Shown here: positions 25,197 to 29,101 of the stretch, piece after piece
How positions within the stretch are numbered: the first letter of the stretch is position 1
Layout: the number at the start of each line of letters is the position of its first letter
Source: Candidatus Jordarchaeales archaeon
GTDB lineage: Archaea > Asgardarchaeota > Jordiarchaeia > Jordiarchaeales > Freyrarchaeaceae
Direction: 5' to 3'
Assembly (NCBI GenBank): GCA_038889235.1
Contig: JAWAHN010000001.1
Span: 60,001 to 92,000 of the forward strand
Length of the DNA: 32,000 nt
The notes under the pieces: generated by a model
Databases searched by the model: none
What the model saw: only the letters and a program-made list of their open reading frames with translations
Told to the model about the DNA's origin: nothing
Made by a program: the position numbers and the translations under genes

Positions 25197-25535
25197 ATGA
25201 GGTTTGTACTAACCGAGAAGGCGCGGACCTATATTGCTTCAGAGGCAGAGAGGATATCCAGAGAGAACGGTACACCTGTCCTAGCTGTTTGGGCAGAGGA
25301 AGTCTACTCTTGAAGAGGAAGCAGGATTGAGGTGCGTGCAGGAGTGCATTACGAGAGAAAGGTTTTGGAGGCAGGTGGCTTCAAAGAAGAGGAGCCCGTT
25401 GACGGGTTGAAGGTCTACGTGCACGAGGAAGCATACAAGTACCTTCCAAGCGAGGTTCACTTGGACTACTTAGGTTACTGGAGAGGGCTGCGCGTCACGA
25501 ACTACGTCTCCGTGAGGCGCGATGGGACCTGTTAA
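25197..25535 (+). CDS. HesB/IscA-like selenoprotein (112 aa; in-frame UGA = Sec39 at 25311-25313)
   Basis: Read-through translation: MRFVLTEKARTYIASEAERISRENGTPVLAVWAEEVYS-U-RGSRIEVRAGVHYERKVLEAGGFKEEEPVDGLKVYVHEEAYKYLPSEVHLDYLGYWRGLRVTNYVSVRRDGTC. Both halves align by eye to the HesB/IscA fold (LTEKA; U at the GGC-SG Cys position; DGLKVYV; LDY; C-terminal GTC). A SECIS-like element follows the stop. Confidence 0.82.
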
Positions 25536-25543
25536 AGTTGTGT

Positions 25544-25585
25544 GAGATGACCCGCCTCCATAAAGAGTGGCGGGGGCGGTGATCT
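25544..25585 (+). promoter_or_regulatory. Eukaryote-type SECIS element in the 3' UTR
   Basis: AUGA at 25547-50. Quartet U48.U83, G49.A82, A50.G81, C51.U80. Helix CCGCCUCC (25552-59) pairs with GGGGGCGG (25572-79). Unpaired AAA at 25562-64. Confidence 0.8.
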
Positions 25586-25630
25586 GGCGGTAATGCACCG
25601 CCAACCTTCCTTTCATTCTTTGGGGTTTCT
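25585..25630 (+). terminator. GC hairpin followed by pyrimidine/T-rich tract
   Basis: TGGCGGT-AATGC-ACCGCCA (25585-25603), then ccttcctttcattcttt. Confidence 0.5.
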
Positions 25631-25683: not shown

Positions 25684-26607
25684 TTGCACTGCATGTTTTT
25701 AGGTAAACGTTTTTTAACCTTCTTTGCCACTTTAGTTCCTTCGGTGGTCTCCTTGTTGGATGAGGAGAGGGAGAGGTTGATTAAGCAGGCTGCCAAGGAC
25801 ATAGTTAAGGCGAACAGAGTTGTCGCTTTAACTGGGGCGGGGATTTCTACTGAGAGCGGAATACCCGACTTTAGAGGGCCTAGCGGCTTGTGGAAGAAAT
25901 ATGACCCAGAGGAGTTCACTTTCTCTCGCTTCTTAAGCGATCCGGCCAGATTTTGGAGTGTTCAAATAAGCATAGCTATGGATGGGTTTTCCCTGTTTTC
26001 CGCTGAGCCTAATCCGGCCCACTACGCGCTTGCAAGATTAGAGGAGCTAGGCAAGCTTAACTGCATAATAACGCAGAACATTGACGGATTGCACCAGAAA
26101 GCTGGTAGTAAGAACGTGATAGAGTTTCATGGTAACGTTAGGGAGGCTGTTTGCATAAGGTGTAACAGCATTTTCCCGATAGAAAAGGCTGTCACGAAAG
26201 TCATGGAGGGTGAGTTGCCTCCGTGCTGTGACTACTGTGGAGGCGTTTTGAAGCCGAATGCTGTCCTTTTCGGTGAGCCAATACCCAGGGATGCGCTTTT
26301 GAGGGCTGAAGAGGAGGCGATGCTCTGCGACCTAATGCTGGTGATAGGCACTTCAGCTGTAGTGTACCCCGCAGCCGACCTACCGCGGATAGCTAAGGAG
26401 AAGACGGGGTATGGGTGGAGCATTATGGGCTACCGACCCCAGGTGCTGGGTAAGTATGGAGCGAAGGTGATAGAAATAAACGGGGAGCCCACCCCTCTCA
26501 CTGGGGTGATATCAGACTATATAATAGAGGGAAGGATAGGGGAAATCCTTCCTCGGGTGGTTGAGGAAGTCGAGAGAATGTTGAAGAAGAAAGAGAAGAA
26601 GCCTTAG
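25684..26607 (+). CDS. cobB: NAD-dependent protein deacylase (Sir2 family)
   Basis: GAGISTESGIPDFRG, TQNIDGLH, HGN, CIRC...CDYC Zn site, KPNAVLFGE and IGTSAVVYPAA. The start is probably downstream of the ORF-track start. Confidence 0.95.
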   Translation: MHCMFLGKRFLTFFATLVPSVVSLLDEERERLIKQAAKDIVKANRVVALTGAGISTESGIPDFRGPSGLWKKYDPEEFTFSRFLSDPARFWSVQISIAMDGFSLFSAEPNPAHYALARLEELGKLNCIITQNIDGLHQKAGSKNVIEFHGNVREAVCIRCNSIFPIEKAVTKVMEGELPPCCDYCGGVLKPNAVLFGEPIPRDALLRAEEEAMLCDLMLVIGTSAVVYPAADLPRIAKEKTGYGWSIMGYRPQVLGKYGAKVIEINGEPTPLTGVISDYIIEGRIGEILPRVVEEVERMLKKKEKKP

Positions 26608-27013: not shown

Positions 27014-29101
27014 TTGCCTATTTCGAAGGTGAGGAAGCGCGACGGTAGGATAGTTGACTTCGATGCTTCTAAGATTGCTGAAGCGATAAGGAAGGCCTTC
27101 GTGGCTGTTGGTAGGGAGGACGGTGACGCCGCCTGGAGGCTGGCTAGGCAGGTTGTTGAGAGACTTGAGAGAAAGTTTGTGGATAGTATTCCTGGGGTAG
27201 AGGACATTCAGGACGTGGTTGAGGACGTGCTCATAAAGAACGGGTTAACTGATGTGGCGAAGGCGTACATATTGTACAGGAACCAGCGGACTGAGCTCAG
27301 GGAGGCCAAGAGGTTTCTGGGCGTCTGGGATGACTTGAAACTATCTCTTAACGCTGTTAGGGTTTTGGAGAAAAGGTATCTTTTAAAGGACGAGAAAGGG
27401 CGCGTCATCGAAACTCCGTCTGAAATGTTCCAGAGGGTTGCTAGGAGCGTAGCGGTGGCGGACAAGAAGTATGGTGGAGACGTTGACGAGACTGCTAGGC
27501 GCTTCTATAGGGCGATGGTTAACTTGGAGTTCCTGCCTAATTCACCCACCCTTATGAACGCAGGGACCGACATTGGTCAGCTTTCAGCGTGCTTCGTCAT
27601 CCCCGTTGAGGACTCCATTGAGGGGATATTTGACGCGTTGAAATACATGGCTTTGATCCACAAGTCTGGGGGAGGAACAGGTTTCTCTTTCTCCCGCCTG
27701 AGACCTAAAGGGGATGTCGTAAAGTCGACTGGCGGGGTTGCCAGTGGACCTGTATCCTTTATGAGGATTTTCGACGTGGCAACGGAGGTTATAAAGCAGG
27801 GCGGGAGGAGGAGGGGGGCGAACATGGGGATCCTGAGGGTCGACCACCCCGATATAATGGAGTTCGTGACTGCTAAGAGCGAGGAGGGCGTGCTTTCGAA
27901 CTTCAACATTTCAGTTGGCGTGACTGACGAGTTCATGGAGAAAGTTGAGAGGGATGAGGAGTACGACTTGATTAATCCGAGGAACGGTGAGGTCGTGAGG
28001 ACTGTTAGGGCAAGGGATGTCTTCGAGCTCATAGTGGCGAATGCCTGGAAGACAGGCGACCCTGGACTCATTTTCCTGGATGAGATAAACAGGAAGAATC
28101 CGACGCCGAGCCTTGGAGTTATAGAGGCGACTAATCCCTGCGGGGAGGTGCCCTTGCTCCCGTACGAGTCGTGCAACTTAGGGTCTGTTAACCTTTCAAG
28201 GATGGTTTCTAAGGGGGACGTGGACTGGGAGCGTTTAAGTGAAACTGTTAGGCTCGGAGTCCACTTCCTGGATAACGTAATAGACGTCAACAACTACCCG
28301 CTTCCACAGATAGAGACTATGACGAAGGCTAACAGAAAAATCGGCTTAGGCGTTATGGGCTTCGCCGAGATGCTAATACAACTCGAAATACCCTACGACT
28401 CGAAGGAAGCACTTGAAATGGCCAGGAAGGTTATGAGGTTTATCTCTGAGGAGGCGAGAAGGAAGTCTGTAGAGCTCGGGGAGGAGAGGGGATCGTTCCC
28501 GAACTTCGAGAAAAGCGTGTGGGCTAAAAGTTACAGCAGCATGAGGAACGCGACGGTCACCTCTATTGCACCAACGGGGACCATAAGTATAATAGCTGGC
28601 ACTTCAAGTGGCATAGAGCCGCTGTTTGCCGTCGCCTTCGTTAGGAACGTTATAGGCACCAGGCTTATTGAGGTAAATCACTTGTTCGAGAAGATAGCTA
28701 GGGAGAGAGGGTTCTACAGCAGGGAGCTTATGCTCAGGATAGCTAAGGCTGGAACACTGCAGAACGTTGACGGAGTGCCGGACGACGTTAAAAGACTGTT
28801 CGTCACAGCGCTAGACGTAACGCCAGAGTGGCATGTGAGAATGCAGGCAGCGTTCCAGGAGTACGTGGACAACGCGGTTTCGAAGACAGTCAACCTACCC
28901 CACGAAGCGACGCTTGAAGACGTGAGAAAAATCTTCATACTAGCCTACAAGCTGAAGTGTAAGGGTATAACTGTTTACCGCTATGGCAGCAAGAGGGAGC
29001 AAGTACTCTACTTGGGCGTGGCGCCGGGCGAGGAAGAGGAGTACGTGGTGGCGGACTCAGAATATTCGGGCGGCTGCCCGGCATCAGTGTGCCCATTCTG
29101 A
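27014..29101 (+). CDS. nrdJ: Class II (adenosylcobalamin-dependent) ribonucleotide reductase with N-terminal ATP cone
   Basis: ATP cone (KVRKRDGRIVDFDASKI), NSPTLMNAG, LSACFV, TNPCGE, SCNLGS, IGLGVMG, APTGTIS, KGITVYRYGS and C-terminal CPASVC; no intein. Confidence 0.95.
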   Translation: MPISKVRKRDGRIVDFDASKIAEAIRKAFVAVGREDGDAAWRLARQVVERLERKFVDSIPGVEDIQDVVEDVLIKNGLTDVAKAYILYRNQRTELREAKRFLGVWDDLKLSLNAVRVLEKRYLLKDEKGRVIETPSEMFQRVARSVAVADKKYGGDVDETARRFYRAMVNLEFLPNSPTLMNAGTDIGQLSACFVIPVEDSIEGIFDALKYMALIHKSGGGTGFSFSRLRPKGDVVKSTGGVASGPVSFMRIFDVATEVIKQGGRRRGANMGILRVDHPDIMEFVTAKSEEGVLSNFNISVGVTDEFMEKVERDEEYDLINPRNGEVVRTVRARDVFELIVANAWKTGDPGLIFLDEINRKNPTPSLGVIEATNPCGEVPLLPYESCNLGSVNLSRMVSKGDVDWERLSETVRLGVHFLDNVIDVNNYPLPQIETMTKANRKIGLGVMGFAEMLIQLEIPYDSKEALEMARKVMRFISEEARRKSVELGEERGSFPNFEKSVWAKSYSSMRNATVTSIAPTGTISIIAGTSSGIEPLFAVAFVRNVIGTRLIEVNHLFEKIARERGFYSRELMLRIAKAGTLQNVDGVPDDVKRLFVTALDVTPEWHVRMQAAFQEYVDNAVSKTVNLPHEATLEDVRKIFILAYKLKCKGITVYRYGSKREQVLYLGVAPGEEEEYVVADSEYSGGCPASVCPF

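Follow-up and report, generated by a model that had tools for sequence, protein, structure and literature searches.

The window that we analysed is a stretch of 32,000 nt from the Candidatus Jordarchaeales archaeon assembly GCA_038889235.1 (contig JAWAHN010000001.1, positions 60,001 to 92,000). On its forward strand it carries a gene that, in read-through translation, extends from the ATG at 25197 to a TAA stop codon at 25533-25535, and whose product (25197-25535, 112 aa) has Cys as its last residue. An in-frame UGA, the presumed Sec codon, occupies positions 25311-25313 of the same strand, in the context YS-U-RGS, and lies 234 nt upstream of the core of the 3' UTR element described below. The stop codon is followed by a gap of 11 nt (25536-25546), after which come AUGA (25547-25550) and C25551. 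About 100 nt downstream of the element begins the next ORF, which encodes a SIR2-family deacetylase (25684-26607) and is followed by the gene of a class II-like ribonucleotide reductase, made up of an ATP-cone and a barrel (27014-29101). The same order, selenoprotein-SIR2-ribonucleotide reductase, was also observed at locus L028, in a genome of the same genus; the host genome and GCA_019057675.1 belong to one genus.

The UGA-containing IscA-like gene

Gene callers divide the coding region into two products of 38 and 67 aa, as would be expected if TGA 25311 were a real stop or the lesion of a pseudogene, if the two small ORFs or neither of them were expressed, and if the hairpin behind the gene had no recoding role; moreover, homologue searches, which covered 400 Asgard genomes, revealed no Cys form of the family that could anchor the position of the Sec residue. 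We consider this reading extremely improbable on several grounds. The family was found in 13 of 400 Asgard genomes (own Asgard family 4/4, sister 6/6, distant 2/5), each with exactly one internal TGA, always at the same column; this column is invariant in alignment A5, and the C-terminal Cys nearly so. Protein identity across the 13 genomes ranges from 26 to 71%, and the conservation runs on past the TGA. The presence of a Sec machinery and of a SECIS element in the genome, reported below, also speaks against a simple stop.

An exhaustive HMMER search retrieved one full-length homologue, P0004, which translates only with the TGA read through, together with several fragments breaking at the TGA position. 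A word-index protein search gave only the C-terminal fragment of the gene itself, a search for related loci with the single protein as query gave nothing, and a sequence-profile search of the PDB was without meaningful match. The read-through product was modelled by AlphaFold as a single compact IscA-like domain (pLDDT 90), in which the residue encoded by the TGA (residue 39) is located where the chain turns from strand E27-38 into strand E41-52, and the best 11 matches in a fold search of the PDB were IscA/SufA/HesB-like proteins. The profiles PF01521 and NF041239 ('CC/Se motif family (seleno)protein') gave collinear matches, weak and below the cut-offs. Taken together, the structural model and the alignments indicate that the gene product is a predicted IscA-fold selenoprotein that always carries Sec. 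Huang et al. 2024 (PMC11227280) do not list it among their seven Asgard families, nor does a 2026 review among its eleven archaeal selenoprotein families.

In addition, 5'-truncated copies of the IscA-like gene were observed beside a resolvase gene (L030-L033 and L044, in G115 and four metagenome contigs). They are without the Sec region and have a TGA where the relatives have a Trp codon, while the SECIS element and the hairpin adjoining it (hairpin 2, see below) are kept. The truncated copy beside the resolvase gene is probably a pseudogene originated by a rearrangement.

The hairpin behind the stop codon

The original prediction had placed a eukaryote-type SECIS element at 25544-25585, with AUGA...AAA...GA-U 11 nt after the stop codon, and the reading of the sequence agrees with this description, the start at 25544 lying 3 nt before AUGA. 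After C25551, the forward strand continues with the 5' arm of helix II (CCGCCUCC, 25552-25559), an apical loop of 12 nt (AUAAAGAGUGGC, 25560-25571), in which the AAA at 25562-25564 is unpaired, as had been anticipated, and the 3' arm (GGGGGCGG, 25572-25579). The 3' side of the core (25580-25584) consists of U25580, of G25581 and A25582, which form the GA, and of U25583 and C25584, which belong to the C-stem. Helix II, for which ~10 bp had been proposed, is shorter, with 8 consecutive standard pairs, 7 Watson-Crick and 1 G.U (25552-25559 with 25572-25579).

The bare pattern AUGA-N10-12-AA-N16-26-GA is frequent in the window (39 matches, ~20 being expected from shuffles), thus the pattern alone is no proof, and a looser hairpin descriptor is barely enriched genome-wide (50 matches vs 38 in shuffled sequence). 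Both hairpins were present in the minimum free energy fold of 25530-25610 (81 nt, z -1.99); in the fold of 25531-25625, which includes 15 more 3' bases, hairpin 2 was again present, and the 3' arm of helix II was re-paired elsewhere, breaking the helix (z -1.64). Single-sequence folding is ambiguous and weak evidence, with z values below significance. The Rfam search of the whole window gave nothing at gathering scores, and no SECIS family at E<=10 between 25450 and 25700, as reported also for the Lokiarchaeal elements, which are likewise without an Rfam SECIS match (Mariotti et al. 2016, PMC4989117). The Rfam matches at E<=10 in this interval, to a CRISPR repeat, StyR-143 and a Giardia snoRNA, were discarded as chance. 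Since pattern, folding and Rfam are indecisive, the case rests on comparison.

The frequency of the pattern, the poor enrichment of the descriptor and the SIR2 ORF starting so close downstream would all suit an element of the 3' end or of the intergenic region that has nothing to do with Sec and shows AUGA...GA by chance, be it a terminator, a SIR2 leader or a hairpin that stabilises the transcript. On the other hand, the element was found a few nt after the stop codon in every orthologue, including the copies with other neighbours: at loci L029 and L027 another gene, or one in the opposite orientation, lies downstream, and the element is still there, travelling with the UGA-containing gene rather than with SIR2. 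It also persists behind the truncated copy beside the resolvase gene. Furthermore, three bases of the core, U, G and A, are invariant (alignments A4, A6 and A8), as are the second base of the 3' GA and the loop adenines 25563-25564 (alignment A6); the first base of the 3' GA varies between G and A among the relatives, the latter giving the AUGA_AA variant, which was found along with GUGA_GA, both of them published.

While these positions stay fixed, the helix covaries. In a set of 18 core hairpins, which takes in mvhD and vhuU of the host genome and the FrhD genes of three other families, 96.1% of the cells were paired and 10/10 pairs were changed on both sides, compared to 45-56% in slid controls, and none of 500 shuffles equalled the observed values. 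For helix II alone, in the 18 sequences, 95.8% of the cells were paired and all 8 pairs were changed on both sides. When the whole structure was evaluated in the 14 orthologous UTRs, 94.2% of the cells were paired and 12 of the 16 pairs were changed on both sides (slid controls, 43-56%). What stands above chance, at the level of sequence comparison, is this covariation together with the recurrence of the same architecture, specifically behind five other UGA-containing genes of the genome (see below). An unrelated hairpin is, on this evidence, very improbable, and we regard 25544-25584 as very probably the working SECIS element of gene 25197-25535, of the Asgard kink-turn type.

The comparison of the elements also bears on the register of the core. 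The two pairs of the putative C-stem, G25544-C25584 and A25545-U25583 (5' strand, 25544-25545), both covary: in the 18 elements the pair A25545-U25583 appears as AU in 12 and as GC in 6, the pair G25544-C25584 appears as GC in 12 and otherwise as CG, GU, UA or UG, and 97% of the cells of the two pairs are paired. By this covariation the base after the 3' GA pairs three positions before the 5' G, leaving the three bases G-A-U bulged; with the next two, G25549 and A25550 of AUGA, they span 25546-25550. The alignment thus speaks for the layout of a classical kink-turn, with its 3-nt bulge, rather than for a U25548.U25583 pair. Drawing on what is known of kink-turns and SECIS elements, we infer that G25549 and A25550 would face A25582 and G25581 as sheared pairs. 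The non-Watson-Crick quartet originally proposed (U.U, G.A, A.G, C.U) is therefore to be revised: its G.A/A.G tandem is possible, but the core is better taken as a classical kink-turn than as a quartet with U.U and C.U, U25583 pairing with A25545 according to the covariation in the 18 elements.

Other SECIS elements, the Sec machinery and the adjoining hairpin

The elements expected behind selD, hdrA, mvhD/vhuD and vhuU of the same genome were found, 9-21 nt after the genes. The element 12 nt after hdrA, a gene with two UGA, is of type II, with an AUGA..AA core; that 21 nt after mvhD (mvhD/vhuD, also with two UGA) is of type I; a third follows a 55-aa vhuU-like gene by 18 nt, and a fourth, of type II, follows selD by 9 nt. 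The sixth element of the genome, counting that of the window, is located behind a second mvhD (C1:441647). The two in-frame UGA of hdrA (C1:746678-748742) are in the contexts VCK-U-G and DDCAI-U-IL; hdrA has its own type II SECIS and the adjoining mvhD (C1:748864-749336) a separate one of type I. According to published surveys, hdrA and frhD share one element. At the FrhD loci L095, L096 and L100 (families f28 and f20) the UGA stop of the gene is the UGA of the SECIS core, and coding sequence and recoding signal overlap by one codon. A search of the 400 genomes with PF02662 gave only Cys forms among the matches listed and was of no help in finding SECIS elements.

Covariance models were built from separate sets of elements. 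Model R1, made only from the UTRs of the IscA-like family, matched the UTRs of mvhD, vhuU and hdrA end to end, hairpin 2 included (21, 17.8 and 12.1 bits, respectively), and on the whole genome vhuU was its second-best match. The same model misaligned the type II element of selD and gave partial local alignments only on the loci of family f20, for which reason alignment A7 was left unused; its match at C1:670803, inside a coding region, was rejected as a false positive. Model R3, for which elements of two further Asgard families were the sole input, had its best match in the window exactly at 25541-25586 (15.1 bits, E 0.28). Model R2, which consists of the core hairpin alone, hairpin 2 being excluded, gave matches in 34 of 151 genomes, exclusively in the Asgard families f1, f2, f20 and f28, a result in favour of the original interpretation. 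On the whole genome, R2 and R3 found no further type I element beyond those already known, and R3 gave no match when a first-look filter was applied. Of the covariance-model check that had been suggested, then, our own Asgard models produced matches, while the Rfam SECIS families produced none.

Sec decoding, which the element had been taken to support, agrees with the gene content: the UGA is in frame in 13/13 carrying genomes, and the host encodes EFsec (C1:350598, 306 bits), SepSecS, side by side with it (412 bits), a SelD with UGA at its active site (HG-U-ACK), and a tRNA with UCA anticodon. This tRNA (C1:335996-336138, minus strand), read by eye, has CUUCAAA as its anticodon loop, an acceptor stem of 9 bp, an encoded CCA and a T loop of the normal kind, and is interrupted by insertions, as an intron-split tRNA-Sec. 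It was missed by both Rfam RF01852 and ARAGORN. The best RF01852 match was an intron-bearing tRNA-Leu(UAA), not tRNA-Sec; a tRNA-Sec search with anticodon-loop descriptors gave nothing, and ARAGORN at relaxed thresholds gave noise only, with ten candidates without an Rfam match. In the whole genome ARAGORN reported only 14 tRNAs, most of them with introns. The only L7Ae-family genes of the genome, in which L7Ae is encoded at C1:612950, are two small ORFs of 127 and 110 aa, and no SBP2 was found in it.

We also observed that selD (C1:553189-554227, outside the window) is split between two frames, SDVY being followed by 31 nt and then by AKGATEIVGF in another frame. The 31-nt insertion (~C1:553441-553471) contains the inverted repeat CACAGCC/GGCUGUG and its removal would restore SDVY-AKGA; either an assembly error or a small intron of tRNA type within a protein-coding gene could account for it. 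Elsewhere in the genome, repeats CUUUCAAUCCCCAUUUGUGGGG with spacers, resembling CRISPR arrays, are located at C2:~3345 and C3:~468739.

Directly behind the core hairpin of the window lies hairpin 2 (25586-25602, forward strand), with the stem GGCGGU/ACCGCC and the loop AAUGC; should the closing U-A pair be open, the loop would become UAAUGCA, with G-C-A in it. A short G+C-rich hairpin, 0-3 nt after the core hairpin, was observed in all six elements of the genome and in the orthologues, and its loop almost always contains GC, usually as GCA or GCG. In most of these elements an outer helix, P1, encloses both hairpins. Its pairing is strong at L028 and L035, two orthologues from the same genus (AAGAGGGG/CCCCUCUU), and in families f19 and f20; in the window its 5' strand, which overlaps the stop codon (25534-25546), is possible and weak, and only interrupted pairings can be drawn, so that P1 would be marginal in this copy. 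The UGA-containing FrhD genes of families f19, f20 and f28 have the same layout, and the three-way junction of core arm, hairpin 2 and outer helix is conserved in five Asgard families. A literature search for 'SECIS' with 'three-way junction' found no mention of a side arm, and neither side hairpin nor outer helix is mentioned in the main texts, figures aside, of Mariotti 2016 (PMC4989117) and Huang 2024 (PMC11227280).

These observations raise the question whether the kink-turn hairpin is needed but insufficient, the functional SECIS being the whole junction and hairpin 2, with its G-C-A loop, a second recognition site; the 42-nt element of the original prediction would then make up only part of the signal. 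Such a reading draws on the position of hairpin 2 directly after the core in 6/6 elements of the genome, on the 14 orthologues, in which hairpin 2 taken alone is 100% paired with 3 of its 5 pairs changed on both sides, on its occurrence in families f19, f20 and f28, and on the GC kept in its loop. Moreover, in f20 a hairpin adjoins 15-16 of the 17 matches of R2, compared to 2.4-3.9% of the background positions at the same loci; the 17 matches include near-identical orthologues and amount to ~13 independent ones. The published models, however, work without hairpin 2, and its conservation could also reflect folding, mRNA stability or 3'-end formation. We therefore judge the insufficiency of the kink-turn hairpin to be almost, but not quite, as probable as its sufficiency, and the participation of hairpin 2 in the functional signal, considered on the alignments, as conceivable and a little short of evenly balanced. 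More tentatively still, the Asgard SECIS may be a three-way junction composed of an outer helix, of the 3-nt-bulge kink-turn arm with its A-rich loop, and of a side hairpin keeping G-C-A (G-Y-R), in which L7Ae would read the kink-turn and the side hairpin would serve EFsec or another factor as a second determinant.

Proposed working and comparison with known systems

With 25544-25584 taken as the SECIS element of the IscA-like gene, a possible sequence of events can be outlined. G25549.A25582 and A25550.G25581 would form the sheared tandem of a kink-turn between the 2-bp C-stem and the 8-bp helix II, and the latter would present the A-rich apical loop in the 3' UTR of the mRNA. The kink-turn fold, possibly together with the adjacent hairpin 2 and the outer helix, would mark the transcript, and EFsec would deliver Sec-tRNA(UCA) to the UGA at 25311-25313 in place of termination. 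The reader of the kink-turn is plausibly L7Ae, because no SBP2 exists, in agreement with the reported absence of SBP2 from Asgard archaea in the literature; if ribosomal L7Ae does read the kink-turn, it would plausibly be a forerunner of the L7Ae domain of SBP2. What we observed is the sequence with its conservation and covariation, the recurrence of the element behind further genes containing UGA, and the Sec machinery; the sheared pairs, the reader, the read-through and the part played by hairpin 2 are what we infer.

No structural bridge between the selenocysteine decoding of archaea and that of eukaryotes is known other than the Asgard SECIS elements, and their bearing on the origin of the eukaryotic Sec system, noted in the original prediction, has been pointed out before (Mariotti 2016, PMC4989117; Sun 2021, PMC9723677; Huang 2024, PMC11227280). 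The element of the window confirms that the Asgard type is in use in a Jordarchaeia-like order, and illustrates how a SECIS signal can flag selenoprotein genes missed by homology-based surveys, here that of an IscA-fold protein. The comparative set adds two refinements to the model, the classical kink-turn register and the side hairpin, conserved as one arm of a three-way junction; should both be functional, they would narrow the search for the archaeal SECIS-binding factor and improve SECIS-based gene finding in Asgard genomes.

Eukaryote-like SECIS elements have been published for Lokiarchaeia, Thorarchaeia, Sifarchaeia and Jordarchaeia (for the last, Sun et al. 2021, PMC9723677), and the Asgard type I is known as lokiSECIS (Mariotti 2016, PMC4989117) or 'eSECIS-like type I' (Huang, Xiao & Zhang 2024, PMC11227280). 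The element agrees with the published type I model (Huang et al. 2024) in all its points: the core 5'-GA...[G/A]A-3' is given by G25549 and A25550 with G25581 and A25582; the stem, for which 7-15 bp with <=2 mismatches are specified, has 8 consecutive pairs; the loop, of 8-20 nt without ministem and starting with unpaired adenines, corresponds to the 12 nt of AUAAAGAGUGGC; and, as the model asks, the element lies in a 3' UTR, 11 nt after the stop codon of a gene whose Sec UGA is in frame, and the genome has the Sec machinery. It is thus a further example of a published Asgard type; it serves the IscA-like family, which is not in the lists consulted, and would form one arm of a three-armed RNA that is not part of the published models.

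Compared to lokiSECIS, the element shares the 3' UTR position near the stop codon, AUGA...GA, a single helix of 8-9 bp, a loop of 11-12 nt with an A-rich start, and the lack of SBP2. It departs from the strict consensus of 9 bp, an 11-nt loop and a last G, having 8 bp and 12 nt, and as last loop base C25571 in place of the 'ultraconserved' G; the stem reaches 9 bp only if C25551.U25580 is counted, and the G of the loop is at 25569-25570. It differs, in addition, in serving a family outside the listed ones, and in the adjoining hairpin 2 and outer helix, on which the main text of the lokiSECIS paper is silent.

With the eukaryotic SECIS elements (RF00031 and others, read by SBP2) the window element has in common a core that resembles a kink-turn and bears AUGA at its 5' side and GA at its 3' side, adenines left unpaired ~11 nt beyond the core, the location in the 3' UTR and a presumed effect, over a distance, on a UGA located upstream. 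By contrast, the comparison supports a 3-nt-bulge kink-turn with a 2-bp C-stem, not a quartet containing U.U; helix I carries an inserted third arm; and in place of the SBP2 by which the eukaryotic elements are recognised, the genome holds only its two small L7Ae-family genes. The eukaryote-type label thus stands as a likeness, that of the Asgard type I, and not as membership, no Rfam SECIS family having matched at E<=10. The Euryarchaeal SECIS elements (Methanococcales, Methanopyrus) resemble it in their place, the 3' UTR of selenoprotein genes in archaea, and in working with the PSTK/SepSecS/EFsec machinery; they have a GAA_A bulge and a G+C-rich lower stem, whereas the core of the window element is AUGA/GA. 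Reading of the sequence between 25536 and the next ORF found no GAA_A asymmetric bulge with a 3-bp G-C upper stem, consistent with the original view that the element is not of the methanococcal type.

The archaeal kink-turns bound by L7Ae, such as those of the box C/D sRNAs and Kt-7 of the rRNA, are composed of a C-stem, a 3-nt bulge, a tandem G.A/A.G and a non-canonical pair. The element would show a closely analogous arrangement, with the C-stem, the 3-nt bulge, the tandem and then C25551.U25580 opening the second helix; unlike them, it is located in the 3' UTR of an mRNA, and has a conserved A-rich loop and a side hairpin. The sequence of the element and its covarying C-stem are compatible with kink-turn geometry and with putative binding by a protein of the L7Ae class.
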